Source: a virus
Lineage: Duplodnaviria; Heunggongvirae; Uroviricota; Caudoviricetes
DNA length: 14,733 nucleotides
Strand: one strand, 5' to 3'
IMG/VR virus record: IMGVR_UViG_2778261529_000003
Position 1 is the stretch's first letter, and each line of letters starts with the position of its first letter. The translations under genes were made by a program, and so were the position numbers. Below, piece by piece: positions 1 through 14,733 of the stretch. The notes under the pieces were generated by a model, which saw nothing but the letters and a program-made list of their open reading frames with translations, was not told where the DNA came from and ran no database searches.

Positions 1-1254
1 ATGCTGGAACAAATGGGCATTGCCGCGAAGCAAGCCTCGTATAAATTAGCGCAACTCTCCAGCCGCGAAAAAAATCGCGTGCTGGAAAAAATCGCCGATG
101 AACTGGAAGCACAAAGCGAAATCATCCTCAACGCTAACGCCCAGGATGTTGCTGACGCGCGTGCCAATGGCCTTGGCGAAGCGATGCTTGACCGTCTGGC
201 ACTGACGCCCGCACGGCTGAAAGGCATTGCCGATGATGTGCGCCAGGTGTGTAACCTCGCCGATCCGGTGGGGCAGGTAATCGATGGCAGCGTACTGGAC
301 AGCGGCCTGCGTCTTGAGCGTCGTCGCGTACCGCTGGGGGTTATTGGCGTGATTTATGAAGCGCGCCCGAACGTGACGGTTGATGTCGCTTCGCTGTGCC
401 TGAAAACCGGTAATGCGGTGATCCTGCGCGGTGGCAAAGAAACGTGTCGCACTAACGCTGCAACGGTGGCGGTGATTCAGGACGCCCTGAAATCCTGCGG
501 CTTACCGGCGGGTGCCGTGCAGGCGATTGATAATCCTGACCGTGCGCTGGTCAGTGAAATGCTGCGTATGGATAAATACATCGACATGCTGATCCCGCGT
601 GGTGGCGCTGGTTTGCATAAACTGTGCCGTGAACAGTCGACAATCCCGGTGATCACAGGTGGTATAGGCGTATGCCATATTTACGTTGATGAAAGTGTAG
701 AGATCGCTGAAGCATTAAAAGTGATCGTCAACGCGAAAACTCAGCGTCCGAGCACATGTAATACGGTTGAAACGTTGCTGGTGAATAAAAACATCGCCGA
801 TAGCTTCCTGCCCGCATTAAGCAAACAAATGGCGGAAAGCGGCGTGACATTACACGCAGATGCAGCTGCACTGGCGCAGTTGCAGGCAGGCCCTGCGAAG
901 GTGGTTGCTGTTAAAGCCGAAGAGTATGACGATGAGTTTCTGTCATTAGATTTGAACGTCAAAATCGTCAGCGATCTTGACGATGCCATCGCCCATATTC
1001 GTGAACACGGCACACAACACTCCGATGCGATCCTGACCCGCGATATGCGCAACGCCCAGCGTTTTGTTAACGAAGTGGATTCGTCCGCTGTTTACGTTAA
1101 CGCCTCTACGCGTTTTACCGACGGCGGCCAGTTTGGTCTGGGTGCGGAAGTGGCGGTAAGCACACAAAAACTCCACGCGCGTGGCCCAATGGGGCTGGAA
1201 GCACTGACCACTTACAAGTGGATCGGCATTGGTGATTACACCATTCGTGCGTAA
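1..1254 (+). CDS. proA: gamma-glutamyl phosphate reductase (glutamate-5-semialdehyde dehydrogenase)
   Basis: 417-aa ORF, ATG at 1, TAA at 1252-1254. Translation is recognisable as enterobacterial ProA with host-like composition. The minus-strand ORFs inside it are antisense artefacts. Confidence 0.95.
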
Positions 1255-1368: not shown

Positions 1369-1444
1369 GCCGATATAGCTCAGTTGGTAGAGCAGCGCAT
1401 TCGTAATGCGAAGGTCGTAGGTTCGACTCCTATTATCGGCACCA
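1369..1444 (+). tRNA. thrW: tRNA-Thr (anticodon CGU), 76 nt including CCA
   Basis: GCCGATA acceptor stem paired with TATCGGC, D-arm GCTCAGTTGGTAGAGC, anticodon loop TTCGTAA (anticodon CGT), T-arm GGTTCGACTCC, 3' CCA at 1442-1444. It lies directly downstream of proA as in E. coli. Confidence 0.93.
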
Positions 1445-1610: not shown

Positions 1611-2825
1611 GTGAAACTCAATGCCCGTCAAATAGACACTGCCAAGCCAAAAGAGAAGGCTTACAAGCTGGCTGATGGTGGTGGTCTGTATCTCTTGGTA
1701 AAACCTAGTGGAGGAAAATATTGGCGCTTCAAGTATCGTGTAGCTGGTAAAGAGAAGCTGTTAGCACTAGGTGTGTATCCTGAAGTTACCTTGGCTGATG
1801 CTCGTGCAAAACGTGAAGAAGCTAAAAGGGGTATCGCTGGGGGTATCGATCCGATGGAAGCGAAACGAGAGGAAAAGATTGCCCGGGAAACGCAGTTAAA
1901 CAACACCTTCAAAGATATTGCCCTTGAGTGGCACAGCAGCAAATTAAAAAAATGGTCTGCTGGTTATGCTTCAGACATCCTCGAAGCCTTTAACAAAGAT
2001 GTGTTCCCTTACATTGGCAAAAAACCAATCGCCGAAATCAAACCACTTGAACTGCTGAATGTGCTGCGGCGCATCGAGGGGCGCGGTGCTACCGAAAAAG
2101 CCAAAAAAGTGAGGCAGCGATGTGGGGAAGTTTTCCGCTATGCAATTGTCACTGGACGTGCTGAGTATAACCCTGCACCGGATCTCACCAGCGCGATGCA
2201 AGGTCATGAATCTAATCATTATCCTTTCCTCACAGCCAAAGAATTACCTGATTTTTTCAAGGCATTGTCCAGTTACTCAGGAAGTGCATTGGTTGTTATG
2301 GCGGCTCGTTTACTGATTATCACCGGTTTGCGGACTGGCGAACTGCGCGGTGCATTATGGGATGAAATCGATCTCAACAAGGCTATCTGGGAGATACCTG
2401 CTTCACGGATGAAAATGCGTCGCCCTCATGTAGTGCCTTTGTCTGAGCAGGCTCTTTCGCTTATTGGGCAGATTAAAGAACTAACTGGCAATTATCCGCT
2501 TATGTTTCCCGGCCGTAATGATCCAAGGAAAACAATGAGCGAGGCTAGCATAAACCAAGTATTTAAACGCATCGGCTATAACGGAAAGGTTACTGGTCAT
2601 GGCTTCCGGCACACTATGAGCACCATTTTGCATGAGCAGGGCTATAACACCGCGTGGATAGAGACACAGCTTGCGCACGTCGATAAAAACTCAATTCGTG
2701 GCACATACAACCATGCGCAATATCTGGATGGGCGGCGGGAAATGCTTCAGTGGTACGCTGATTATATGGATTCGCTCGAGCATGGCGGAAATGTGGTGCA
2801 TGGTGAGTTCGGAAAATGCGGGTGA
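1611..2825 (+). CDS. int: tyrosine site-specific integrase, P4-type (tRNA-targeting)
   Basis: 404-aa ORF with GTG start and GGAGG 10 nt upstream. N-terminus (LNARQIDTAKPKEKAYKLADGGGLYLLVKPSGGKYWRFKYR) is typical of P4-family integrases. C-terminal catalytic region has R..HGFRHT and a tyrosine near the end. Position is adjacent to the tRNA. Confidence 0.9.
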   Translation: MKLNARQIDTAKPKEKAYKLADGGGLYLLVKPSGGKYWRFKYRVAGKEKLLALGVYPEVTLADARAKREEAKRGIAGGIDPMEAKREEKIARETQLNNTFKDIALEWHSSKLKKWSAGYASDILEAFNKDVFPYIGKKPIAEIKPLELLNVLRRIEGRGATEKAKKVRQRCGEVFRYAIVTGRAEYNPAPDLTSAMQGHESNHYPFLTAKELPDFFKALSSYSGSALVVMAARLLIITGLRTGELRGALWDEIDLNKAIWEIPASRMKMRRPHVVPLSEQALSLIGQIKELTGNYPLMFPGRNDPRKTMSEASINQVFKRIGYNGKVTGHGFRHTMSTILHEQGYNTAWIETQLAHVDKNSIRGTYNHAQYLDGRREMLQWYADYMDSLEHGGNVVHGEFGKCG

Positions 2826-2953
2826 CTGGTTGAGTATACAGTAGTAGACTTTGAGCGACGAAAGAAAAGGCTGTGTCTAGGGTCGCTCCCGAAAATCCGT
2901 ACACCTCGACGGACTGGTACAGCCACTACAGTAGAGGACGCTGAGGTGTGCGT

Positions 2954-3751
2954 ATGATTGATATTCATGCCGAATTAAACGAATACAAAAAAGATTTTAT
3001 TTCTTTACGTGAATTTCTTGAGGTCGTGCTTAAGGTCGCTGGTGATGATTATGATGTTTCAGATGTCATAACTTGGATACTCAGGAGAATAAGCGGAGAA
3101 CATATCCGCCTGTACACAGTAAATGAATTTAAGCTGTTGGAATCTTTTTGTAACCCGTATCGGGATGAATTTGATAATGATGTTCTTTATAGAAATCTGA
3201 ATGCGGTTCGGAAACGTGGTTGTTTACCTGGTGAGAGGGATGAAAATGGTTTTCTGGTGTCCGGTTATTGGGAAGATCCCGAATTTGAGAACATTGGATT
3301 TATAAGGGGTGAAATTTTCGCAATTTTTCCCGATGTCCTTGACGCGTTAACGAAGCTGGAAGGCGCTAACTCTTCTGAAAATGACGAGGCACAAGGACGC
3401 GATATTGAAAAGAAAGAGTTGCGTACAGAGGATGATTTATTATCCCAAATCGCAATGCTGGAAAAAGAAAACGCAGAGTTAAGGGCAAGGATAGAGCAGT
3501 TAGAGCAAGAGCGCCCGATACACTTATATAAATACTGGGATAAAGACCCATTAGCTAAGGCTATTGAGATTAGAAACAGAGAGTGGGCCAATTACGATCC
3601 AGAAAATGATTTTGCCACCAGGGGAAATCAAGAAGCGATAACCAGGGAGCTTAAGCAGTGGGGGGCAAGTAATGCACTTGCAACGCTCATAGAGAGGACT
3701 GCCTGCCCTATTAACCGAGACAACAGCCAAAAGAACGCAAAGCCGGATTAA
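2954..3751 (+). CDS. hypothetical protein, AT-rich orphan with C-terminal coiled-coil
   Basis: 265-aa ORF (ATG 2954, GAGG 7 nt upstream, TAA 3749-3751). GC is markedly lower than its neighbours. Predicted coiled-coil segment LLSQIAMLEKENAELRARIEQLEQE. No family recognised by eye. Confidence 0.6.
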   Translation: MIDIHAELNEYKKDFISLREFLEVVLKVAGDDYDVSDVITWILRRISGEHIRLYTVNEFKLLESFCNPYRDEFDNDVLYRNLNAVRKRGCLPGERDENGFLVSGYWEDPEFENIGFIRGEIFAIFPDVLDALTKLEGANSSENDEAQGRDIEKKELRTEDDLLSQIAMLEKENAELRARIEQLEQERPIHLYKYWDKDPLAKAIEIRNREWANYDPENDFATRGNQEAITRELKQWGASNALATLIERTACPINRDNSQKNAKPD

Positions 3752-3766
3752 CGCACCATACCGCAT

Positions 3767-3910
3767 ACCCTGAGGGTGATTTACTGTTACCCTGAGGGTA
3801 TTTTTTTATCTTCCCCGTCAATTTTACCATCACCCTTAGGGTAGATTTCCTCCCGATTACCATCACCCTTAGGGTAGATTTCCTTCCGGTAACCATTAGG
3901 CCTGAGGGTA
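3767..3910. repeat. array of five CC(C)TNAGGG palindromic sites including a 26-bp direct repeat (3825-3850 and 3858-3883)
   Basis: ACCCTGAGGGT at 3767-3777 and 3789-3799; TACCATCACCCTTAGGGTAGATTTCC twice, 33 bp apart; CCTGAGGG at 3901-3908. Lies in the intergenic region upstream of alpA. Confidence 0.7.
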
Positions 3911-3978
3911 TGAAAATATTCGTTATTTCTGTGCCATGATTACCTCGTCAAATTGAGTAGACGTTATGAGGTAAATAT

Positions 3979-4176
3979 ATGTCAAATACGCTTATTCGTT
4001 TAACAGAAGTTCAGCGTAGAACTGGATATAGCAAGGCATGGATTTATCGCCTTATGGGGCAAGGTAAATTTCCTGCATCAGTTAAAATTGGCTCGCGAGC
4101 TATTGCTTTCGTTGAGAGTGAAATTGACGAGTGGATTAATCAGCGTATTGCGGAATCACGCGGAACAGCTACCTGA
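3979..4176 (+). CDS. alpA: AlpA/Vis-family phage transcriptional regulator (excisionase-like HTH)
   Basis: 65-aa ORF, ATG 3979 with GAGG 7 nt upstream. Sequence RTGYSKAWIYRLMGQGKFPASVKIGSRAIAFVESEIDEWINQR matches the AlpA/prophage CP4-57 regulatory-protein pattern. Confidence 0.85.
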   Translation: MSNTLIRLTEVQRRTGYSKAWIYRLMGQGKFPASVKIGSRAIAFVESEIDEWINQRIAESRGTAT

Positions 4177-4253
4177 TTAAATGGCTACGGGGCTATTGCC
4201 CCCAGCTATCCACCAGCAAATAAAAGTAACTTAATTCGATAGCAGGAGTTTTT

Positions 4254-5054
4254 ATGAAATTTCCAAAAACGCCCGTACAGGGGCGGGGCTTCGTTCGGCC
4301 TGAAAACCAGAATCTGCAAAATTTCGGCGAAATTATCCCGGTTATTTCCGGCATTATTGGCGGGTGTGAAACCAATATTGTTAGCGCCAGAGCGTTGCAT
4401 AAGGCGTTAGGTGTAGGTCGCGTTTTCCGTTCGTGGATCAAGGGGCGCATTGAAGAATACGGCTTCACGGAAGGCGTGGATTATGAGGTTGTTGAATATT
4501 TGAGCCGACCCGATCCGGTGAGCGCAAAATCTCGCCAGCAAACAGCTCTTGAGTACATCATTACCGTGAACATGGCAAAAGAACTGGCGATGGTCGAACG
4601 CACCGAACAGGGCCGCGCCGTTCGCCAGTACTTCATCAAATGCGAGGAGGAGCTACACAAGGTAGCGCCAGTGCGTTCCGCAGCTTTACGCCGGGAACTG
4701 AAAGCCCGTATCACCGTTGCCAGCTACTTTAAGCCAATGTGTGCCGCGCTGGAGGCGTACCGGGCTGAACTGGGTAAAAACACGCTCCAGCACCATTACA
4801 CCACGGAAGCCAATATGCTGGCGCGTATCGTGCTGGGTGGCATGACTGCAAAACAGTGGGCGCAGGCGAACGGCATCACAGGCGAACCACGCGACCACAT
4901 GAGCACATTGCAGCTTGAGCACCTTTCTTACCTTGAGCAGAGCAATATCACGCTGATTGAGTTAGGCCAGGACTACCACCAGCGGAAAGCTGAATTAATT
5001 CGTCTTTCGCAGCGTTGGTTAGCCCGTCGCATGGAGGAAAACAGCCATGTGTAA
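4254..5054 (+). CDS. phage antirepressor-like protein (AntA-type N-terminal domain)
   Basis: 266-aa ORF, ATG 4254 with AGGAG upstream. N-terminal ISARALHKALGVGRVFRSWIKGRIEEYGFTEGVDYEV resembles the AntA/AntB antirepressor domain. Confidence 0.7.
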   Translation: MKFPKTPVQGRGFVRPENQNLQNFGEIIPVISGIIGGCETNIVSARALHKALGVGRVFRSWIKGRIEEYGFTEGVDYEVVEYLSRPDPVSAKSRQQTALEYIITVNMAKELAMVERTEQGRAVRQYFIKCEEELHKVAPVRSAALRRELKARITVASYFKPMCAALEAYRAELGKNTLQHHYTTEANMLARIVLGGMTAKQWAQANGITGEPRDHMSTLQLEHLSYLEQSNITLIELGQDYHQRKAELIRLSQRWLARRMEENSHV

Positions 5055-5720
5055 CGCTCTGACCGTTACAAAAAGAGAAAGCGCCCCGTTGCCGGAGCGC
5101 CTTTGTGAACAAATCGCTTACTGCGCCATATTGTTTACTGCCTTTCGGGCAGATTATAGCGTTGTGGTCGCACAGAGTGAAGGCGCTGATCACTGTTACT
5201 ACAGTACGCCAGAAATGCAGAATATTTTGCTGCAAAATGCCGTTAGCCACGCTGTCCGGAAAGCAAAAAATTTTGCTGGTGGCGCGACTGATGCGATTTT
5301 GTCAGGTCACCAGGTGCTGATCAATCTGATGTCTGATTTCGTTCTGGATAAAACAAAGGCGACTGCAGAGGGCCACCAGTGGGAAAGCTACACACTTGAA
5401 CACATTGCCAACAATGCCAGATTTGCGGCTGGTGGGCAATGTGATCAGTGTGCTGGCTTGCTGGTGGGCTATTCATGCTCTTTAACATTGCCATGCCGCG
5501 ATGTTTTCCAGGTATGCGATCCCATTTTTGTGCGCCTGTACTCTTTAAGGAATTGCTCAAGGGCAAAAGCACATGGCGCGAATCTTTCTGATTCATGCTC
5601 TATCTTTCTGCGCCGTCTTTTCCGTGCCGGTGATGGTGTATTGGTTGATTCTTTGTTGGTCATTCTGTGTACCTGTAAAGCAATGCGCCGGAGTTCCTCA
5701 CACCACGGCGATGATAGTTA

Positions 5721-5900
5721 TTATTCTGATTCTTTGGCCTTGCGGCGCTGGCGGCGTTTGATCTCGCCTTTTGCGGCAGTAACTAAAAAACCAGCGGTAC
5801 TTTCGCCAGGTTCTTTAAGTTGCTCAATATCATCCATTACTTCATGTGGGATTCTGACAGTTGTCATTTGTGATTTTGCGTTTTTTGCACCAGTTGCCAT
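5721..5900 (-). CDS. small ribbon-helix-helix (Arc/MetJ/CopG-like) DNA-binding protein, candidate island repressor
   Basis: 59-aa ORF from the internal ATG of the 5721..6077 minus ORF, with AGGAG 9 nt upstream. MATGAKNAKSQMTTVRIPHEVMDDIEQLKEPGESTAGFLVTAAKGEIKRRQRRKAKESE has a beta-strand then two helices, the RHH pattern. Transcribed divergently from the replication operon. Confidence 0.6.
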   Translation of the reverse strand: MATGAKNAKSQMTTVRIPHEVMDDIEQLKEPGESTAGFLVTAAKGEIKRRQRRKAKESE

Positions 5901-5966
5901 TTCTGGATCTCCTAAAAATTGGTGTATGTCAGTATACGCAAAAAAAATGATAAAAAAAGGCTTGAA

Positions 5967-6012
5967 GTGTATTTCACCAGTGAGTAAATTAAAAAGCAAA
6001 GGTGAAATACAC
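5967..6012. promoter_or_regulatory. perfect 12-bp inverted repeat GTGTATTTCACC (21-bp spacer) GGTGAAATACAC, candidate operator in the divergent intergenic region
   Basis: Read directly. Located between the RHH gene start (5900) and the first rightward small ORF (6094), flanked by A-tracts. Confidence 0.5.
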
Positions 6013-6093
6013 CTAAAAGAGCAACGCCCCGCAGTGCTCGCAACACATGCAGGGCGTCTAACCACCAACGATAGCAAGAGTATCGAGGTAGCT

Positions 6094-6297
6094 ATGGGAA
6101 ATCATACCACACACCCGCAAGGGCGGGACTCGCACAACCTGAATAAATACATCTGGCGTTTTATCGCCCTGAGCACGGCACAACCGCGCGTAATTCACAT
6201 CGAGGCCATCAGCGAACAGGAAGCACGCCAGCAATCTCCTGATGGCTGTGTGATGGTATTCGCCGCCCGTATTCGTCAGGGGGTAAGCCATGCATAA
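6094..6297 (+). CDS. hypothetical small protein (67 aa)
   Basis: ATG 6094 with GAGG upstream. Ends in SHA-stop with the 8-nt overlap junction CATGCATAA onto the next gene. This is the terminal segment of the long 5047..6297 frame, so the start is uncertain. Confidence 0.35.
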   Translation: MGNHTTHPQGRDSHNLNKYIWRFIALSTAQPRVIHIEAISEQEARQQSPDGCVMVFAARIRQGVSHA

Positions 6298-6655
6298 CCT
6301 GTCAATTTCTGACCTTAACAGCATTCAGTTTGACGAGAAATTTACCGGGCAGTTGCTGGTCAATGTGGAGAACGGGCGCATAGTGCGTAATTACCACCTG
6401 CCGGATGGTGCAATTGCCGGAAGCGTTGAAGCATTGCTGGAACTGGCGGAACGTGCGCGACTGATTAAGCCGTCAACGAGCCATCACGATGATGATCTGC
6501 ATTTTACCGGGCGTATGGTGAGTCACTACGAAAACGGCGTTGAAGTATCCCGCGAACGGCTGCGTGATGATTGCTGTTTCGGCACACTGCCGGAATTTAT
6601 CGAGTTGCTGACCAGTTGCGGTTATCAGGTCATTCAGGGGGGTGAACATGCGTGA
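6290..6655 (+). CDS. hypothetical protein (121 aa), paralogous N-terminus to 6874..7074
   Basis: ATG 6290. N-terminus MHN...FTGQLLV resembles MHN...FTGRVLV of the 6874 gene. Ends EHA-stop overlapping the next ATG (CATGCGTGA). Confidence 0.6.
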   Translation: MHNLSISDLNSIQFDEKFTGQLLVNVENGRIVRNYHLPDGAIAGSVEALLELAERARLIKPSTSHHDDDLHFTGRMVSHYENGVEVSRERLRDDCCFGTLPEFIELLTSCGYQVIQGGEHA

Positions 6656-6881
6656 TGATCGTTTTAATTCCCTGAAACGGGAGTTTGATGGCGCACCGGA
6701 AGATACATCGGGCGCATTGTTGAGCGTTGCTGACATGATGAAAGCTGCATGTTTTCTTATCAATACCAATGGCTACAAGTCAGAGGGTGAAATGATTCTT
6801 AGTATTGCGTCGGACTATGCGGAATATGTGGCAGAGACGCGTTACAGAAGAAAATTCACGGAGGATGTAAGTCATGCATAA
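6648..6881 (+). CDS. hypothetical small protein (77 aa)
   Basis: ATG 6648 (the track's GTG 6642 is less likely). Ends SHA-stop with junction CATGCATAA identical to that at 6289-6297. Confidence 0.5.
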   Translation: MRDDRFNSLKREFDGAPEDTSGALLSVADMMKAACFLINTNGYKSEGEMILSIASDYAEYVAETRYRRKFTEDVSHA

Positions 6882-7074
6882 TCATGAAGCGCATGTACCC
6901 GTAGCGCTTAATGTGCCAGATGATTTCACCGGACGCGTACTGGTTTACCTGGATAAAGGGAAAGTGAAATCACAATGCCGACTGAAAAGTAATGAGATTG
7001 TTGGTTCTCCTGAATTTTTTTCTGAACTCTGTATTCGTGCGGAAATAAAACCGGAACTGCTGACAGGAATATAA
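6874..7074 (+). CDS. hypothetical small protein (66 aa), paralog of the 6290..6655 N-terminal region
   Basis: ATG 6874 with GGAGG 8 nt upstream. Shared MHN / FTG-R/Q-LV / IKP motifs with the 6290 product. Confidence 0.55.
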   Translation: MHNHEAHVPVALNVPDDFTGRVLVYLDKGKVKSQCRLKSNEIVGSPEFFSELCIRAEIKPELLTGI

Positions 7075-7078
7075 AACC

Positions 7079-7369
7079 ATGAAAAAGAAAAATTCTGGCT
7101 TTACTGCCAGCGGTCTCTCTCGGCCTGAAATCAGACACGGAGATATTTACCGCGACACCAGACGTGGGGGACGAGTGGTTATTCGTCACGTTACGCCAGG
7201 CAATATCACCTACCGCCGTGAGGCTTACGAATATGACTGTGTAATGCCGCGCCGTCAGTTTGAGCGTGATTTTATTCTGGTTGAAAACAAACAACAGGCG
7301 GTGGCGAGACGTGCAGCCACGAATATTAAAAAAATCCGGGCAATGTTGGTTGCGGGAGGTAAGAAGTGA
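7079..7369 (+). CDS. hypothetical basic protein (96 aa)
   Basis: ATG 7079. Stop TGA overlaps the GTG start of the downstream replication gene (GTGA), indicating the same operon. Confidence 0.5.
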   Translation: MKKKNSGFTASGLSRPEIRHGDIYRDTRRGGRVVIRHVTPGNITYRREAYEYDCVMPRRQFERDFILVENKQQAVARRAATNIKKIRAMLVAGGKK

Positions 7370-9171
7370 AAAACGCACCGAATTTAAAATATCAGCCGAA
7401 GGATAAATTCACCGAGGTAATCATTTTGGCCGGGACGGATGCTTACGCCCATGCTCAACACTGGATTGAAAGCGAAGGACGAAAACACGGCGATAACGTA
7501 CCACCTGTTTACCTGGGGCCGAAGCAACTGGCAGACCTGGCGAATATCCGCATTATTGACGAGAAACGCCGCTTTGCGCGTGTCTATCTTGCGGGGGAGA
7601 TCGAGCCAATCCAGATCAATGCTATCGCTGAAAAACTGGCGCTGGCTGGCGTACAGGACGCGAAATTATACAAAGGTATCACCGATCGGGAGCCGGAAAA
7701 CTGGCGCGACTACCTGCAACGGATCCGCGAACAGGCAGAGAGTGGGGAAGTTTCGGCGATGAAATTAGCCACAAAAAATATTGACCTACCCAGGCCAGCA
7801 CTAAATCAGATGGGAGCCAGCCAGAGAGGGGAAGTGTTACTTGAATATTATGGAAGAGCACTGGCTATAAATGATGATTCTGATGTAGTTCACCATTACA
7901 ACGGAATTGTCTGGGTGCCTGTATCTGATAAGGAACTCCAGCGGTCTATGGCGAAGATTTTTATTGATGCTGGAATCAGTTATTCGCAAAACGCCATTAA
8001 ATTTGCCGTAGACACAATGAAATTGAGCCTGCCTGTTATGGGCGGGGCTGACAGGAATCTTATTGGATTCAGTAACGGGGTATTTGATACCAGGACAGGA
8101 AATTTTCGGGAGCACAACAAAAATGACTGGTTGTTAAATGCCAGTGAATTACCGTTCAGCCCACCAGCAGAGGGGGAAACGCTGGCAACACATGCGCCGA
8201 ATTTCTGGAAGTGGTTGCGTCGTTCGGTGGCAGATAATGATCGTAAAGCTGATCGCGTACTGGCGGCATTATTCATGGTACTGGCGAACCGGTACGACTG
8301 GCAGTTATTCCTTGAGGTAACTGGCCCAGGCGGAAGCGGTAAAAGTGTGATGGCGGAGATTTGTACCATGCTGGCTGGTAAGGCCAACACAGTATCGGCA
8401 AGCATGAAGGCGCTGGAAGACGCAAGGGAACGCGCGTTAGTCGTTGGCTTTTCGCTGATTATCATGCCGGATATGGCCCGCTACGCTGGAGATGGTGCAG
8501 GAATTAAGGCAATTACTGGCGGCGACAAGGTGGCAATCGACCCGAAACATAAAGCCCCCTACTCCACACGTATTCCGGCGGTAGTGCTGGCAGTAAACAA
8601 TAACGCCATGTCATTCAGTGATCGCAGTGGAGGGATCTCGCGTCGTAGGGTGATATTTAATTTCTCTGAGGTCGTACCGGAGAACGAACGCGATCCCATG
8701 CTGGTGGAAAAAATAGAAGGCGAACTGGCGGTAGTGATTCGCCACCTGCTTACTCGTTTTTCTGACCAGGATGAAGCCAGACGTCTGTTATATGAGCAGC
8801 AGAAATCAGAAGAGGCACTGGTGATAAAACGCGAGGGTGATTCACTGGTGGACTTTTGCGGCTATCTGATGTCGTTGGTTAAATGTGAAGGAATGATGGT
8901 GGGCAATGCGGAAATAGTGCCATTTAGCCCGAGGCGGTACCTGTATCATGCTTATTTAGCCTATATGTCAGCGCATGGCCTGGGAAAACCAGTATCACTG
9001 ACACGCTTTGGTACAGATATGCCAGGAGCTATGGCGGAATACGGAAAGGAGTATAAGCGGGCTAAATGCACTAAAGGCCAGGATAAAGGGCGAGTGATAA
9101 CAAATGTTCTGTTAGATGATGATGCTGATGGTTGGTTGCCAGCAGCAACAGGGATTAACGACAGAACATAA
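7366..9171 (+). CDS. replication initiator: D5_N domain plus SF3 helicase (P4 alpha C-terminal-like primase/helicase family)
   Basis: 601-aa ORF, GTG start with GGAGG upstream. Walker A GPGGSGKS; D5_N-like segment NGVFDTRTGNFREHNKNDW. Followed immediately by an iteron array. Confidence 0.88.
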   Translation: MKNAPNLKYQPKDKFTEVIILAGTDAYAHAQHWIESEGRKHGDNVPPVYLGPKQLADLANIRIIDEKRRFARVYLAGEIEPIQINAIAEKLALAGVQDAKLYKGITDREPENWRDYLQRIREQAESGEVSAMKLATKNIDLPRPALNQMGASQRGEVLLEYYGRALAINDDSDVVHHYNGIVWVPVSDKELQRSMAKIFIDAGISYSQNAIKFAVDTMKLSLPVMGGADRNLIGFSNGVFDTRTGNFREHNKNDWLLNASELPFSPPAEGETLATHAPNFWKWLRRSVADNDRKADRVLAALFMVLANRYDWQLFLEVTGPGGSGKSVMAEICTMLAGKANTVSASMKALEDARERALVVGFSLIIMPDMARYAGDGAGIKAITGGDKVAIDPKHKAPYSTRIPAVVLAVNNNAMSFSDRSGGISRRRVIFNFSEVVPENERDPMLVEKIEGELAVVIRHLLTRFSDQDEARRLLYEQQKSEEALVIKREGDSLVDFCGYLMSLVKCEGMMVGNAEIVPFSPRRYLYHAYLAYMSAHGLGKPVSLTRFGTDMPGAMAEYGKEYKRAKCTKGQDKGRVITNVLLDDDADGWLPAATGINDRT

Positions 9172-9198
9172 TACGAAATTTATAAGCTGAAACGTAAA

Positions 9199-9540
9199 GG
9201 TAGACGGTTGGTAGACAGATTCACTTAACTCTCTACCAACCATCTACCAATTAATATTTTGAATTATAAAGATATTTTCAATGTGGTAGAGAGGTGGACA
9301 GTTATTTCTATATTCCTAAACCACGGGGGGTATATAAAAAAACAGATAGTTAAGGGTTCATTTTTTAAATTTCTCTTTTAACTGTCTACACTGTCTACCA
9401 TTTAGTAAAAATCATTAATTATCAATGTATTAATGCGGTAGACAGTTAGTAGACAGTTTGCAGATTGTTTTTTTGTTATGAGTTAATAACATTAAATAAA
9501 TCAATAAATTATATCGGTAGACAGTTGGTAGACAGTTGTA
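9199..9540. repeat. iteron-type replication origin: about 12 copies of GGTAGACAGTT in pairs at 11-bp phasing, both orientations, separated by AT-rich tracts
   Basis: Pairs at 9199-9220, 9232-9250 (inverted), 9284-9305, 9380-9400 (inverted), 9436-9460 and 9515-9540. AT-rich candidate unwinding element around 9305-9370. Confidence 0.8.
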
Positions 9541-9543
9541 ACG

Positions 9544-10086
9544 ATGGGGCAAAGCATGACTAAGCTGACCATTAACAGAAAACCGAAAGGCATTTATGGC
9601 ACGCCGCAGAAAACGACGCAGGTGGCACAGGAGCAGGATAAAACCACGTCGGCGCATAAAGTGATGCCCGGTAACCAGAAAGCGCAGCAGAAGCCCACAG
9701 GGGCGACACCGTGGCGGCATATGACCAAGCGCCAGCGCAAAAACCGCAGGCGCATTAACCGCCTCACTGAGTTGTGGCCTGAATTATTCAGTCGGGAAGC
9801 ACCGAAGCCGCTTAAGGTGGGGATATTCGACGACCTGATGCAGGATCTCGCCGTCAGGGGGCTGGCATTCGGTCCAGGGGCATTGCGTGCGACGCTGGCA
9901 TCTTATGCACAGTGTCCGCGCTATTACCGCGCCTTAATGGCTGGTGGGGTACGCTACGACCTGAAAGGCCAGCCGTGCGGCGAGGTGACACCACAGGAAC
10001 AACAGGACGCAGAAACGCGGCTGGTGGCGCTGAATGAGAAGCGCAAACGTCAGCGCCGGGTAGCAAAGGAGAAAACAGGCGCATGA
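9544..10086 (+). CDS. FinO/ProQ-domain RNA-binding protein (RNA chaperone-like)
   Basis: 180-aa ORF (alternative start ATG 9556 with GGGG upstream). Core LTELWPELFSREAPKPLKVGIFDDLMQDLAVRGLAFGPGALRATLASYAQCPRYYRALMAGGVRYDLKGQPCGEVTPQE closely resembles the ProQ N-terminal/FinO domain. Basic tail. Confidence 0.7.
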   Translation: MGQSMTKLTINRKPKGIYGTPQKTTQVAQEQDKTTSAHKVMPGNQKAQQKPTGATPWRHMTKRQRKNRRRINRLTELWPELFSREAPKPLKVGIFDDLMQDLAVRGLAFGPGALRATLASYAQCPRYYRALMAGGVRYDLKGQPCGEVTPQEQQDAETRLVALNEKRKRQRRVAKEKTGA

Positions 10087-10370
10087 TTCACGACAGCAAA
10101 GCGGAAGCACTGGAAGCGCGTGGTCTGTACCGGAGAGCGGCGGCGCGGTGGGCTGAGGTCATCATGCTGGCGAATGATGACAAGGCACGGGAACAGGCGG
10201 CAAAACGTCGCGCGGAATGTATCCGCAAGGCAGCACGCCCACCAGCAAGGCAGGATAATTTCGGGGAGATGCGCGAAACCATCAGCCGGGCACATGCCGG
10301 GATGGGATTACATCAGCCCAATGGTAAGGCATTCAGGAAATACCCTGGATCGAAAAATTGCAGTCAGTGA
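10083..10370 (+). CDS. PerC-family transcriptional regulator-like protein
   Basis: 95-aa ORF; ATGA overlap with the upstream stop. Motif LEARGLYRRAAARW ... KRRAEC ... PPARQDNFGE matches the PerC/Pch pattern as I recall it. Not verified by search. Confidence 0.55.
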   Translation: MIHDSKAEALEARGLYRRAAARWAEVIMLANDDKAREQAAKRRAECIRKAARPPARQDNFGEMRETISRAHAGMGLHQPNGKAFRKYPGSKNCSQ

Positions 10371-10375
10371 CGGAG

Positions 10376-10399
10376 GCCGGGATTTTTCCCGGCTTTTTT
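10376..10399 (+). terminator. Rho-independent terminator (GCCGGG / CCCGGC stem, 6-nt loop, T6 tail)
   Basis: Hairpin and U-tract read directly, 6 bp after the PerC-like stop. Confidence 0.7.
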
Positions 10400-10405
10400 G
10401 TGCCA

Positions 10406-10446
10406 GTAAAAAGCCCGCAGCCAGAAGTGTTGCGGGCTTTGTTTTT
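10406..10446. terminator. second, possibly bidirectional terminator (AAAGCCCGCA / TGCGGGCTTT stem, A-tract 5', T-tract 3')
   Basis: 10-bp perfect stem with 11-nt loop, flanked by AAAAA upstream and GTTTTTC downstream. Confidence 0.6.
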
Positions 10447-10571
10447 CAGGTGATTGAAGTCAATGGGAAGAACGCGATCATCATGCGTTATCGTTTCATA
10501 AATTGCAATAATGTAGATCGTCATTTCAGTTTATGCAATCATAACCATTGTTTTGTTCAGGAGATATGACT

Positions 10572-10745
10572 ATGAGAAAAGCCAGCGTGAAACCCGTTTT
10601 ACTCGCTCGTGATCAGATTGAAGCATTACAGCGCATCCAGGACGAGGAACGCCGCAATTCTCCGCTGGGGATTGCTCCGAGCATTCATGAGGTCGCCCGG
10701 CGTTTAATGCAGCGGGCGCTTTATCCCGTAGAACGTCCGGCCTGA
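10572..10745 (+). CDS. hypothetical small protein (57 aa), possible DNA-binding regulator
   Basis: ATG 10572 with AGGAG 8 nt upstream. First gene after the terminators, so likely the start of a new operon. Confidence 0.4.
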   Translation: MRKASVKPVLLARDQIEALQRIQDEERRNSPLGIAPSIHEVARRLMQRALYPVERPA

Positions 10746-10784
10746 TGGTCGTGATTTTTTGGTGAAAAAAGAGAGGTGGTAAAA

Positions 10785-11363
10785 ATGCCAGCAAGCAAAG
10801 AAGATTTGCGATTAAAACTGATGGAGGTGGTTAACGCTCTGTCAGAGTCGCAGGGAAGCACTCCGCAGGAGATTATCGAAATTCTGAATGCGATCCCCGC
10901 ACAGGATTTCATAAAAGAGGATAACGCGAATCAAAACATCGTCGCGTCAGTCGAAGATGAATCCTCACTGGCAGAAGCCCAGGCTAAAGCGGATTCCGCA
11001 TACAGCAATATGGGCCGTCGCGCTCCGGCCCCGTTTGCTGGTGAAAAGTCGATGGATTACCGCAAACGTGCATTAATTGGCGCACAGAAGCTGGCTAAAA
11101 AATTCAGTGATGTGGATATTCGTTCCGTTTCAGATTCTGCAACGCTGGCGGTGCTGGAAGATCAGATTTACAAGGCTGCTCAGGAAAGTGCTCAGTGGGC
11201 CGTGGAAAACACGCCGGGCCATTTGGGTAAAACCGTAAGAATGGATGAAGCCGGTCGTCGTATTACTGAATATCAAGGAGATCCGAACGTCTGGCTGAAC
11301 GCCTTCAAAATCCCTCCCCGTCGCCTGGTCAAAATTAACGTTGCAAGCCTCGCGGGGGCATGA
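10785..11363 (+). CDS. hypothetical protein (192 aa)
   Basis: ATG 10785 with GAGAGGTGG upstream. Acidic, helical-looking; no family recognised. Confidence 0.55.
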   Translation: MPASKEDLRLKLMEVVNALSESQGSTPQEIIEILNAIPAQDFIKEDNANQNIVASVEDESSLAEAQAKADSAYSNMGRRAPAPFAGEKSMDYRKRALIGAQKLAKKFSDVDIRSVSDSATLAVLEDQIYKAAQESAQWAVENTPGHLGKTVRMDEAGRRITEYQGDPNVWLNAFKIPPRRLVKINVASLAGA

Positions 11364-11380
11364 AAAACGTGCTGAGTTCA

Positions 11381-11410
11381 GCCCTGCCGGATTTGGCGGG
11401 GCTTATTGCT
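11381..11410 (+). terminator. weak hairpin (GCCCTGCC / GGCGGGGC, one G-U pair) followed by TTATTGCTTAT
   Basis: Read directly. Poor U-tract, so may be an attenuator or RNA processing site rather than a terminator. Confidence 0.3.
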
Positions 11411-11427
11411 TATAACCGGATAACATT

Positions 11428-12099
11428 ATGCTTTTAACAGAAATTGAGGCGGCGAAGCAGGTTCGGGACGGACAGCTACCGTCGCCTTATCAGTTTTCCA
11501 ACATGTGGCTGGTTAACCTGCGTATCACAGGAACCGGAATGGCCTACCGCGCCGAAGAAAAAGAATTTGTCTGGCGTTCACCGCAAACTTATCTCAATCC
11601 GCAGTTCCTGGAACGTTGCGCCGGAGTACCCGTCATTATCGACCATCCCGAAAGCAAAACCCTTGAAGACGTGGGCGAACGGTCGCGCATTATTGGCACC
11701 GTCATGTTGCCGTATATTCGCGGTGACGAGGTGTGGGGCGTATGCCGGATTTACGGGCAGGAAATCATCGATTACATCCAGAAAGCACGGGGGGAGGTAT
11801 CCACCAGCCCGTCGGTTGTGTTTTGTGGTGCGTCCGGTGGGGCTGAAGTTCCTGATGTAATGGGCGAGGACAATTTTTTTATTGAGGGTACGCCATTTCT
11901 TATCGATCACGTTGCGCTCGTGCCGCTTGGTGTTTGGGATAAGGGCGGGAAACCATCGGGCGTGGAAGTAACAACGCCGACAGCAGAAGAACAGCTTGCC
12001 GGAATGGTCCGGGACGTTATTGATGCGGCCTGCAAGCCAGCCCTGGAAAAACTGGAAGAAATATCCGGGCGGCTGGCTCAACTGGAAAAAGAAGGGTGA
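11428..12099 (+). CDS. hypothetical protein (223 aa)
   Basis: Protein-like composition in this frame only. The competing 11444..11860 alternative-frame and 11578..12138 antisense ORFs have implausible composition. No obvious Shine-Dalgarno at ATG 11428. Confidence 0.5.
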   Translation: MLLTEIEAAKQVRDGQLPSPYQFSNMWLVNLRITGTGMAYRAEEKEFVWRSPQTYLNPQFLERCAGVPVIIDHPESKTLEDVGERSRIIGTVMLPYIRGDEVWGVCRIYGQEIIDYIQKARGEVSTSPSVVFCGASGGAEVPDVMGEDNFFIEGTPFLIDHVALVPLGVWDKGGKPSGVEVTTPTAEEQLAGMVRDVIDAACKPALEKLEEISGRLAQLEKEG

Positions 12100-12105
12100 G
12101 TCATA

Positions 12106-12633
12106 ATGCTGATGAGTAAGGCAGAATATGCCAAACACAAAGGCGTAAGCCGCCAGACAGTTTACGACTGGATCGATAAAGGCGAAGTGGTCATGTCCGG
12201 TAAAAAAATCGATGTGGAAGCGACAGAGCAGCGGAACAGCCCACCTGCACAGGGAAAAGACACAGTTTCTGAAATGTGGCCAGAGAGAACGCTGGAAATG
12301 ACGTGGGGCGAGTTCTGGAAAGCAGTTAAGGCCAGAGGCGGTAAAATTCCTGCGCCAGCAACGGACGAGGGCATACAGCAGCGTGTGCTGGATGCAGCCG
12401 GGGAATTAGGCTGGGAAGTGCACTTTCTTGATGATGGTGCTATCTGCCTTGAGGATTGCGACGGGCAGCATTACTTTGAACAATACAATTTGCGAGGTAA
12501 TGCCAGGCTGGCAATTCGTATGCTGCGTTGCGAACTCTGCTATGTTGCAGGTGATTATCCCGATGAACTGGAATCATGGAGTGAAGCCGGGCTAAACGCC
12601 CTGGCTGAATGGGAAAAATCAGACCATCAATGA
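12106..12633 (+). CDS. Nu1/terminase-small-subunit-like HTH protein; candidate packaging-redirection (Rpp-like) factor
   Basis: 175-aa ORF. N-terminus MSKAEYAKHKGVSRQTVYDWIDKGEV has the Nu1-type winged-HTH pattern (compare lambda Nu1 KKQLADIFGASIRTIQNWQEQG). Last gene before a repeat array. Confidence 0.55.
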   Translation: MLMSKAEYAKHKGVSRQTVYDWIDKGEVVMSGKKIDVEATEQRNSPPAQGKDTVSEMWPERTLEMTWGEFWKAVKARGGKIPAPATDEGIQQRVLDAAGELGWEVHFLDDGAICLEDCDGQHYFEQYNLRGNARLAIRMLRCELCYVAGDYPDELESWSEAGLNALAEWEKSDHQ

Positions 12634-12851: not shown

Positions 12852-13035
12852 GCGCCGCTTTAGAAAACTTTATGTGCAGATCGTTGGATGCATCTGTCAA
12901 AACTTGCCACCCACCAGCACCGCCAGCGGGGATTTTTGGCTACACGCGCTCTAAGTAACAGTTGCTTCAGTGCGTTACATACGTTGGAAGTGTTATAACT
13001 CAAGTTTTTGAGACAAAGTCAGAATTGTATGAATT

Positions 13036-13088
13036 TGTCTATAGCCGTCTACTCAAGTTTTCTACATAATATAAGGAAATAGCATGTT
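13036..13088. other. degenerate copy of the att-proximal arm sequence found just downstream of thrW
   Basis: Collinear anchors TGTCT, 6 nt, GTCTACTCAAGT, 22-23 nt, GCATGTT are shared between 1451-1502 and 13036-13088. ACTCAAGTTTT also occurs at 12999-13009. Confidence 0.5.
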
Positions 13089-13125
13089 GTTTAATTAATG
13101 TACGATAATTCTGAAAGAGTAACAT

Positions 13126-13953
13126 ATGATAAACTTAGATATGGATGTTGTGGTTGGACATGGGCAGAACGATTTTGAAGAATTAGAAATGAATTCCGGC
13201 ATAAAGGTTTTTGCTGGAGCTTCTGACATCACCCAAATTACAACAAGCACTATTTTAGATGATTCAGTCCCCAAAAAATCAACCTCTATACATGGGCTTA
13301 GGAATATGTTCAAACATACATTTGATGGATCGTTTGGACAAAATTTTGAACTTAGAATTGATGATCCTGAAAAGATAAAAAGATTTAATGAAATTGGCAG
13401 GGGTGTTTTTTTTGATGTTATGTCATATTACATCTCTAAAGGAATGGGAATAGCTCACCATCTTAAGAGCCAGAAAGCAATCGACTTAGTAGAGCGTCTT
13501 AAACCGCTTGAAAAACAACTTTTGATAAGAATTCAGGAACCTATACAGAATTTACATAAAACAGTTGAGAAACAAAAATATAATGTACTTCTGAGAAGAA
13601 GAACACCAACTAAAAAATTAGTTGTTGCTAAAATGGATACGCAGACGCTCTTCAATATCAATGTAGAGCATGAATCTGCTCAACCAGTAGAAGAAAATGT
13701 TATTATAACTAGGTTTAATATGTTAACAGGAACTGGTCGATTGTTATTAGATAGACAGTCAGATTCAATTGCCTTTAGACACCATCTTAATTGGGAACAT
13801 GTATTGCAGTCTCAGAAAAATAAGTTTTCAAGGAATCTTGATAGGAATAACAGAGGTGGTAAAGACGCTTTTATACCTATAACCATTTCTGCTTATGAGT
13901 TGCGCGATCATATTGGAGAGCTAAAGGCTTATATAATTAGAGAAATATTGTAA
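13126..13953 (+). CDS. hypothetical soluble protein (275 aa), first gene of an AT-rich cargo operon
   Basis: Long ORF in strongly AT-rich DNA, K/N/I-rich codon usage unlike the island core. Stop TAA 13951-13953 directly abuts the next ATG. No family recognised. Confidence 0.65.
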   Translation: MINLDMDVVVGHGQNDFEELEMNSGIKVFAGASDITQITTSTILDDSVPKKSTSIHGLRNMFKHTFDGSFGQNFELRIDDPEKIKRFNEIGRGVFFDVMSYYISKGMGIAHHLKSQKAIDLVERLKPLEKQLLIRIQEPIQNLHKTVEKQKYNVLLRRRTPTKKLVVAKMDTQTLFNINVEHESAQPVEENVIITRFNMLTGTGRLLLDRQSDSIAFRHHLNWEHVLQSQKNKFSRNLDRNNRGGKDAFIPITISAYELRDHIGELKAYIIREIL

Positions 13954-14733
13954 ATGAAGATGCCCTCAATCAAAGTTATTTCACTTATATTAATAGCTAT
14001 TGTATGGTATTTTTACTTTTCTCATTTCAATCATTGGGATAGCCCGTTAGATATCTTTAATGCTAGCAAATGGATGGGTTTTTCCAATGATAAAGGTGAT
14101 TGGGGCACTTTCGGGGATTTTGTAGGAGGTGTGCTTAATCCTATCTTGACCTTCATTACAATTGTTATGCTCATTAATTCCTTGAAACTTCAACGAGAAG
14201 CAAACGAGCAACTAATTAAAGACGAAAGAAGACAAGAGAAAGACGTTCTTCTAAAACGGTTTGAAGACGGTTTTTATAACCTTATCTCTTCAGAAAGAGA
14301 GGAGTTTAGTTGTTTTACTATTAACATTAACGGAAAAGAATACCGCTCATCTGCTGCTGTTAGTGAATTGGAAGAGGCAATATGGGCTTTTATTGAGAAA
14401 CAAATAGATGAAAAAGGAGCTTGCGAAATTGAGGATGTTAAAAATTACATAAATAAAATTGATGAGGATTCATCTATGGCAATATTTTCCATGGTGCGAT
14501 GTGTATATGTTGTTTTTAAGGTTGTTAAGGATAAATGCCCTGAAGAACATCAAGATTACTACTTAGATATTTTTATGAATATGTTACCAGTTAAACTGGT
14601 AAATTTAGTTGCTATTGTGTCTGTGTATATGGACTGGAAAAACGTAAAATATATTATTGATGGTGGAAAAGGATTTTCGGATAATGAAGCAGTTAAAGAA
14701 TATATTAATACTTGGAAGGAGTTTCATGAATAA
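13954..14733 (+). CDS. hypothetical membrane protein (259 aa) with two N-terminal transmembrane helices, candidate effector
   Basis: Hydrophobic segments VISLILIAIVWYFYFSHF and FGDFVGGVLNPILTFITIVMLINSL, then a charged, probably helical cytoplasmic domain. Zero-nt intergenic spacing from the upstream gene. Confidence 0.7.
   Translation: MKMPSIKVISLILIAIVWYFYFSHFNHWDSPLDIFNASKWMGFSNDKGDWGTFGDFVGGVLNPILTFITIVMLINSLKLQREANEQLIKDERRQEKDVLLKRFEDGFYNLISSEREEFSCFTININGKEYRSSAAVSELEEAIWAFIEKQIDEKGACEIEDVKNYINKIDEDSSMAIFSMVRCVYVVFKVVKDKCPEEHQDYYLDIFMNMLPVKLVNLVAIVSVYMDWKNVKYIIDGGKGFSDNEAVKEYINTWKEFHE

Follow-up and report, generated by a model that had tools for sequence, protein, structure and literature searches.

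A two-gene cassette encoding an AbiC-like membrane protein in the cargo slot of an Escherichia coli phage satellite

AbiC and AbiP are among the oldest abortive-infection proteins known, and genes of the putAbiC family are common in bacterial genomes. According to a 2026 review of lactococcal Abi systems, AbiC consists of two transmembrane (TM) helices and a helical domain and lowers capsid protein production, AbiP, a structural relative of AbiC with a single TM helix, depends for its phenotype on a nucleic-acid-binding domain, and neither protein has a known mechanism (PMC13064643). Both act after DNA entry, at the level of capsid protein production, replication or transcription (PMC13064643). 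AbiC, AbiP and canonical putAbiC proteins are single-gene systems. In contrast, the locus considered here, at the end of a 14,733-nucleotide stretch of caudoviricete DNA (IMG/VR record IMGVR_UViG_2778261529_000003; the whole stretch is called the window below), comprises a gene B for a predicted membrane protein that is always preceded by a dedicated gene A. We argue, with a probability of roughly 60%, that window positions 12855-14733 together with about 217 bp beyond them form a self-contained, mobile two-gene module of the abortive-infection type, in which A would be a sensor or regulator gating B, an AbiC-like membrane effector.

Genes A and B and their relatives

That both genes are far more AT-rich than the rest of the island and the host flank had been pointed out in a first-pass annotation made from the sequence, and this holds: GC content is 33.7% in A and 32.7% in B (26% and 29%, respectively, at third codon positions) compared to 48.6% for the island core (1611-12633) and 54.3% for proA. 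The tight coupling seen at the same time also stands, the stop codon of A abutting the start codon of B with a gap of 0 nt (TTG TAA ATG AAG). At the base composition of the pair, stop codons are expected about every 12 codons, and the chance of an open frame is 4e-11 for the 275 codons of A and 2e-10 for the 259 codons of B. Relative to the copy in Klebsiella phage Kp4865-4, the ratio of non-synonymous to synonymous substitution rates (dN/dS) is 0.064 for A and 0.143 for B. These are real genes under strong purifying selection. The pair occurs at 99% identity or more in 57 of 5,426 complete E. coli genomes (about 1%), on the chromosome in every case, and both proteins are labelled 'hypothetical protein' everywhere in the databases. 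Scanning A and B as single sequences against Pfam, NCBIfam and PADLOC returned nothing significant, and neither did an Rfam scan of the cassette and its flanks, so that there is no sign of an RNA antitoxin.

Consider B first. Its hydropathy profile peaks at residues 1-27 and 53-79, placing TM helix 1 at about residues 5-25 and TM helix 2 at about residues 53-78. The AlphaFold model, with a predicted local distance difference test score (pLDDT) of 85, has helices at residues 5-25 and 47-119, TM helix 2 thus extending as one long helix to residue 119, followed by a helical globular domain (132-258). Two N-terminal TM helices and a helical domain are what the first-pass annotation had described, and it was the same annotation that called for structure prediction of both proteins. 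Topology, placement in the inner membrane and action at the membrane are predictions for B. A joint alignment running from the B family through canonical putAbiC proteins leaves G51, T52, F53, G54, D55, G58, G59, P63 and Q80 invariant; the GxxxG-like arrangement of G54 and G58, along with D55 and N62-P63 in TM helix 2, where the Asp and Asn of the glycine-rich motif are buried, suggests either helix packing or a polar path through the membrane.

A search of 5.8 billion proteins with B retrieves a compact family (38-97% identity, mostly enterobacterial where an organism is named). Beyond this family, the single-sequence search reaches carriers of the putAbiC domain PF16872 at E-values of 1e-10 to 1e-5, via the motif DKGDWGTFGDFxGGxLNPIL. 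When the B family is compared by hhalign with those distant PF16872-linked matches, the two profiles align over 212 columns (99.9%, E 2e-31), and a separately assembled set of 20 PF16872-carrying proteins, drawn from a mixed-profile search and mostly named 'putative phage abortive infection protein' by NCBI, aligns over 171 columns (99.6%, E 1.2e-24). The latter alignment covers B residues 42-220, with R182, Y185 and Y203 matching the FRxLY...Y core. The mixed profile itself retrieves 924 proteins, PF16872 being present in almost all of the 120 listed ones that fall outside the B family. B also matches phrog_8999 (E 1e-45), and sequence searches of the PDB with the B profile found no relatives. 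To judge by these alignments, B belongs, remotely, to the putAbiC (PF16872) superfamily and forms a divergent branch within it.

With canonical putAbiC proteins B has in common the GTFGDFxGGxLNPIL motif at TM helix 2, the helical C-terminal domain and carriage by phages and plasmids. However, at 239-262 residues the B family is shorter than canonical putAbiC proteins (about 280-440) and is without their C-terminal extension. Canonical putAbiC genes, moreover, are found alone, for example in a Mu-like prophage, after a DUF4160/DUF2442 pair and on Leptospira replicons. B therefore agrees with the superfamily in architecture, motif and profile-profile comparison and departs from it in that the PF16872 and PADLOC models do not recognise it and that it is not a single gene. 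Three systems with suggestive names or settings turned out to be something else: 'Abi_C' (PF14355), in spite of its name, denotes a separate family, the HEPN domain found in AbiJ and SadR, the Tai systems of PICIs (phage-inducible chromosomal islands) are unrelated single genes, and the S. Heidelberg ColE1 'Abi' belongs to another system, of the ATPase type.

Close relatives of A form only 10 clusters. A profile search of 1.84 billion cluster representatives extends the family to 141 clusters at 50% identity, with homologues down to about 20% identity; 96 of the representatives are full-length (261-317 residues, most about 265-285) and match end to end, the remainder being fragments. Among 104 aligned relatives, DUF7946 is found in 65 (best E 6e-23) and DUF7947 in 63 (E up to 0.01). 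These proteins have the same two-domain layout of about 275 residues as A, which in the window copy falls below both Pfam thresholds: its match to DUF7947 spans profile positions 3-75 of 79 and is weak (E 0.028, 14.9 bits against a cut-off of 27), as are the matches of nine of the ten close relatives, and DUF7946 gave no match to it in the Pfam scan. A matches phrog_13337 over its full length (E 9e-56). At the level of the family, the profile matches identify A as a DUF7946/DUF7947 protein. Neither domain has a recorded function, and no paper mentioning either was found in the literature, so that the assignment provides structure rather than mechanism.

The AlphaFold model of A (pLDDT 95, predicted template modelling score 0.89) has two domains. 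Its C-terminal, DUF7947-like domain is modelled as a five-stranded barrel with the topology of an oligonucleotide/oligosaccharide-binding (OB) fold, structurally similar to known OB folds. No match in the PDB was found for the N-terminal domain, and sequence searches of the PDB with the A profile found no related solved structure. The most conserved positions are G31, G68-S69, H144, T195, R196, N198, T201, G202, G204, R205, F217 and L238. The conserved basic residues R196, R205 and K231 point towards binding of single-stranded nucleic acid, as a prediction. A fold search against BFVD returned two viral proteins of about 375 residues, a DUF6575 protein and Q6NE06 of Leptospira phage LE1 (E about 1e-7), with a TM-score of only 0.43; the lead was dropped when, in a related LE1-like phage record and the Leptospira plasmid examined, the AbiC-like gene stood alone, without such a neighbour.

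How firmly do A and B belong together? In every A-family locus down to about 28% identity, a B-like gene recognised by hidden Markov model (HMM) lies directly 3' of A, with a gap of 0, 3 or -4 nt, and among 20 plasmid records with an A homologue at least 19 have a B homologue immediately adjacent. The two proteins diverge in parallel. Identity to the window proteins is 92% for A and 82% for B in Klebsiella phage Kp4865-4, 82% and 73% in Kluyvera, 46% and 46-47% in Pantoea, a lambdoid prophage and a chromosomal islet, and 30% and 36% in a P2-like prophage; the low GC content is retained in all hosts. The settings are diverse. Apart from the Klebsiella phage and the Kluyvera and Pantoea genomes, they include a chromosomal islet adjoining an LmuB-like SMC ATPase, a lambdoid prophage where the pair sits beside the Q antiterminator, and a P2-like prophage where it lies between the portal gene and gpA, the position of the P2 old/tin locus. 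On IncX1 conjugative plasmids such as pSTY1 (L023; NZ_CP009103.1 29895-31450) the pair is found in the accessory region, among SLATT, HEPN, DinQ and DqlB genes. In the 4,652-bp ColE1-type Klebsiella plasmid NZ_CP142969.1, whose other annotated genes are Rop, a helix-turn-helix (HTH) protein and a 49-aa open reading frame (ORF), a 30%-identical pair of the A+B type is the only evident cargo. In one metagenomic relative (L011) the B gene is split. A and B are thus obligately linked across mobile elements.

Two far more divergent DUF7946 proteins have other genes downstream, which are not AbiC-like. In these loci (L019 4001-5427; L020 892-2458) one partner is a 189-aa protein with a single TM segment, encoded beside Mrr-like and PLD-like genes, and the other combines TM segments with what, judged by eye, resembles a NERD-type nuclease domain; an AbiC-like identity for the L019 partner was rejected (2.6 bits, not significant). 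These loci are a hint that effectors of several types partner the A family, and such effector swapping is typical of defence sensors.

The carrier island and its distal cargo slot

The island has the hallmarks of a phage satellite: a tRNA attachment site with an integrase, an HTH regulator of the AlpA type, a primase-replicase with iterons, genes for packaging redirection, and attL/attR repeats. It also holds AntA/B and Icd-like, ProQ/FinO-like, PerC-like activator, protease-like and TerS-like genes. Among the proteins scanned there were no matches to phage tail or lysis families, although no search was aimed at tail or lysis genes. These features support the view that the carrier is a PICI/P4-type satellite integrated at tRNA-Thr of E. 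coli, and with its attachment sites, integrase and satellite genes in place the proposal that such an element carries the pair as accessory cargo at its distal end is borne out.

The end of the island lies outside the window but can be read from L001 (NZ_AP027764.1), where attR, a copy of the 3' end of tRNA-Thr (TCCTATTATCGCACCATT; 16092-16112), follows about 260 bp past the stop codon of B, and where host LysR-type genes begin after about 400 bp. The intervening cargo-specific DNA of about 217 bp has no ORF above 29 aa. The system consequently has two genes and no third, contrary to the earlier expectation that more of it might lie past the end of the window.

What makes this slot informative is a sister island in strain VTB96775v, whose integrase protein is the same and whose sequence on either side is 97-99.9% identical. 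By blastn, its homology with the A+B-carrying island ends at the equivalent of window position 12854 and resumes 217 bp after B. Between these breakpoints the sister island carries an AAA ATPase and a DUF4435 protein that correspond to AriA (E 3e-43) and AriB (E 4e-22), that is, to PARIS. The A+B module, about 2.1 kb long with 271 bp of upstream DNA of its own, and a known defence system are therefore alternatives in a single, sharply delimited slot. PARIS is, like A+B, a two-gene module, and it has the identical boundaries, but its proteins, an ABC-type ATPase and the DUF4435 protein, are unrelated to A and B and the evidence it provides is positional only. The DUF4435 protein is described as a Toprim nuclease.

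The distal slot, then, is a defence hotspot, and the swap fixes its boundaries in this satellite family to the base pair. Carriage of immune systems by PICIs at the 5' or 3' end has been reported (PMC11364771), a placement that the exchange of PARIS for A+B fits. The suggestion that variable anti-phage cargo occupies this position held up in the comparison with the sister island, and a pair residing where a sister island holds PARIS is most likely an anti-phage system. It had also been put forward as a candidate new one, neither protein having been assigned to a family. Here we differ: B can be placed, remotely, in the putAbiC superfamily and A with DUF7946/DUF7947 and phrog_13337, so that the system is cargo of a defence slot but not wholly new, being rather a two-gene variant of a known Abi kind.

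Features of the window, with positions counted from its first nucleotide
Feature	Position	Strand	Remarks
proA	1-1254		host flank
tRNA-Thr (CGU)	1369-1444	+	island integration site, attL side
Integrase gene	1611-2825		next to tRNA-Thr
Primase gene	7366-9171
5' non-coding part of the swappable cargo module	12855-13125	+	presumed promoter region; putative ribosome-binding site AAGAG 8 nt before the ATG
Gene A	13126-13953	+	275 aa, soluble; divergent DUF7946/DUF7947 family member, phrog_13337
A, N-terminal alpha/beta domain (aa 1-180)	13126-13665	+	DUF7946-like; conserved G31, G68-S69 'GSFGQ' hairpin, H144
A, C-terminal domain, modelled OB fold (aa 188-274)	13687-13947	+	DUF7947-like; b1-b2-b3-helix-b4-b5, conserved b1-b2 hairpin (T195, R196, N198, T201, G202, G204, R205)
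Gene B	13954-14733	+	259 aa, predicted inner-membrane protein; divergent AbiC/putAbiC superfamily member, phrog_8999
B, TM helix 1 (aa 5-25)	13966-14028	+	hydropathy and AlphaFold helix
B, hallmark motif W50-GTFGDFVGGVLNPILTF-67, continuing into TM helix 2 (to about aa 78)	14101-14187	+	invariant columns, hydropathy, AlphaFold
B, C-terminal helical domain	14188-14730	+	predicted cytoplasmic; residues about 176-221 align with the PF16872-modelled region of canonical putAbiC proteins

Several further observations concern the island itself. The stretch from the TerS-like ORF to the boundary at 12854 contains four direct copies of AAAAGTGTCAAG on the + strand (12639, 12693, 12774 and 12830), a count reached in none of 200 shuffles. 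The last copy lies right at the point where PARIS and A+B are swapped; these repeats may mark where packaging starts from, as a packaging site, or may bind regulators. Four copies of GTTGGTAGACAG, iteron-like in arrangement, lie at 9207-9535, in the AT-rich stretch (about 35-40% GC) that follows the primase gene and is probably the replication origin of the island. Two copies of GTCTACTCAAGT adjoin attL (1461 and 1525) and one lies in the cargo module upstream of A (13047), and GGGGGTAyyTTTGGGGGTAT occurs near the integrase promoter (window positions of about 1561-1580) and again just before attR (L001 16011-16035); both elements may be arm-type sites of the integrase.

Between the integrase gene and that of the AlpA-like regulator, in the 5' accessory slot, a 267-aa ORF (2948-3751, + strand; WP_001723118.1, hypothetical) lies in a region of 41-44% GC, below the island core, and has no PHROG match; it could be a second cargo or defence candidate. 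The adjacent ORFs 10776-11363 and 11428-12099 match phrog_6216 at positions 409-544 and 115-328 of 545, i.e. in swapped order, one of them with weak similarity to a head-maturation protease, and look like a split or rearranged satellite gene for packaging or capsid remodelling. Finally, other genomes with the same cassette (coordinates from L001) carry an IS3 element in the PerC-like gene as well as a different, 380-aa gene that replaces window positions of about 10400-12100 (the two at 9410-10572 and 10862-12004, respectively), so that the island core is mosaic even among carriers of A+B.

Possible function of the pair and alternative explanations

How might such a pair work? The anti-phage function, the split into sensor and effector, the ligand and the action at the membrane are all things that we infer. 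In the scheme we favour, A would watch the cytoplasm for a phage-made cue by way of the face of its OB fold that displays the conserved residues R196, N198 and R205, the cue possibly being single-stranded nucleic acid, a replication intermediate or a phage protein. A would then switch B on, or release it, and B would bring phage development to a halt at the membrane, perhaps through depolarisation or permeabilisation. Alternatively, B might, as AbiC and AbiP are reported to do, interfere with the expression of late phage genes. The best-supported reading of the protein B itself is that it has lost part of the canonical putAbiC C-terminal region and works with a dedicated OB-fold partner.

The idea that A senses a cue and gates B draws on the nucleic-acid-binding domain that AbiP needs and on an analogy with the RexA/RexB system of phage lambda, which has the same logic and scale, being a prophage-borne operon of two genes with a soluble protein of about 275 residues encoded upstream of a small polytopic membrane protein. 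RexA is a cytoplasmic sensor and RexB a membrane ion-channel effector. No homology of A or B to RexA or RexB was found. A local resemblance was seen between residues 36-84 of A and the PADLOC model PDC-M02B (weak, E 2e-4, in seven of ten close A-family members), but membership of A in PDC-M02 was rejected, given that five of 104 wider members match, that about 47 of 379 profile positions are covered and that B has no match to PDC-M02A.

A number of results count against our interpretation. The PF16872 HMM, which spans only about 80 C-terminal residues of the protein, matches neither window B nor any of 16 B-family members at E-values up to 1; residues of about 176-221 do align with the modelled region but are too diverged, which is why the HMM misses them. 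No family in PADLOC-DB v2 matches B, the same 16 members giving only two unrelated weak matches. With regard to the prototype, AbiC (Prf) of Lactococcus lactis plasmid pTN20, the N-terminal TM architecture that B shares is known to us from the published description of AbiC, and no Lactococcus record turned up in the plasmid searches. A scan for sigma-70 promoters upstream of A yielded no convincing consensus. Searches of the literature found no phenotype for the pair or a close homologue, nothing on putAbiC in Gram-negative bacteria and no publication on the A+B pair. Finally, as canonical putAbiC proteins are encoded by single genes, A could equally be an antitoxin or inhibitor.

This last point leads to the most serious competitor, in which the pair is a toxin-antitoxin or addiction module, B being a membrane toxin, A the partner that neutralises it, and the main role stabilisation of the carrier element. 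If this were so, it would be easy to understand why a 4.65-kb ColE1-type plasmid has no evident cargo besides the pair, why the pair is found among type I toxins (DinQ, DqlB) on IncX1 plasmids and why A and B are tightly coupled and co-inherited; and the existence of single-gene putAbiC proteins means that B may be intrinsically active and need restraint. We nevertheless consider it unlikely. A is large for such a role (275 residues in two domains) and has neither a match to an HTH DNA-binding family nor a disordered, antitoxin-like region, and the pair resides in defence hotspots of satellites and prophages, elements that need no post-segregational killing. It should be kept in mind, however, that toxin-antitoxin and abortive-infection roles are not mutually exclusive. 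The predicted location of B in the inner membrane, its encoding by prophages, satellites and plasmids, and the conserved periplasm-facing loop and motif at TM helix 2 would also suit a non-abortive form of superinfection exclusion, where B, aided by A, blocks genome entry or an early step at the envelope and leaves the cell unharmed. Yet all of A, as well as the conserved bulk of B, is predicted to lie in the cytoplasm, and the homologous proteins AbiC and AbiP act once the DNA is inside (PMC13064643), so that we regard exclusion as quite improbable.

Might the pair instead serve the satellite's own biology rather than defence at large, for instance by interfering with the helper phage or by acting in lysis timing or packaging? 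It does follow directly after the packaging-type TerS-like and protease-like ORFs. But plasmids, prophages of the P2-like and lambdoid types and chromosomal islets that have no satellite genes carry the same pair, and the sister island works without it, having PARIS instead, which makes a satellite-specific function very improbable. The idea that we are looking at a spurious or decaying AT-rich remnant without function could appeal to the 'hypothetical protein' label that both genes bear in every database and to the split B gene of the metagenomic relative. If the pair were decaying, however, we would not expect frames whose probability of being open by chance is about 1e-10, dN/dS values of 0.06-0.14, identity of 99% or more across 57 complete E. 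coli genomes and confident predicted structures. Selection and conservation effectively refute this explanation.

We therefore return to an abortive-infection-type module as the preferred reading. The module is missed by PADLOC-DB v2 and by PF16872 and yet is found on satellites, prophages, IncX1 plasmids and small ColE1-type plasmids across Enterobacterales; if active, it would be a missing entry for defence catalogues and would give a function to two Pfam DUFs and two PHROGs. A soluble OB-fold partner split off from a slimmed-down AbiC-like protein would allow the two to be studied separately, in E. coli and with well-characterised phages. More tentatively, and with our doubts outweighing our confidence, DUF7946/DUF7947 proteins might constitute an unrecognised class of modular OB-fold infection sensors that gate AbiC-type effectors and, in divergent relatives, others. 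Were that true, A and B would be the first two-component, genetically separable version of AbiC/AbiP, and would offer a handle on what triggers AbiC-type proteins and how they act at the membrane, questions that date from 1992.

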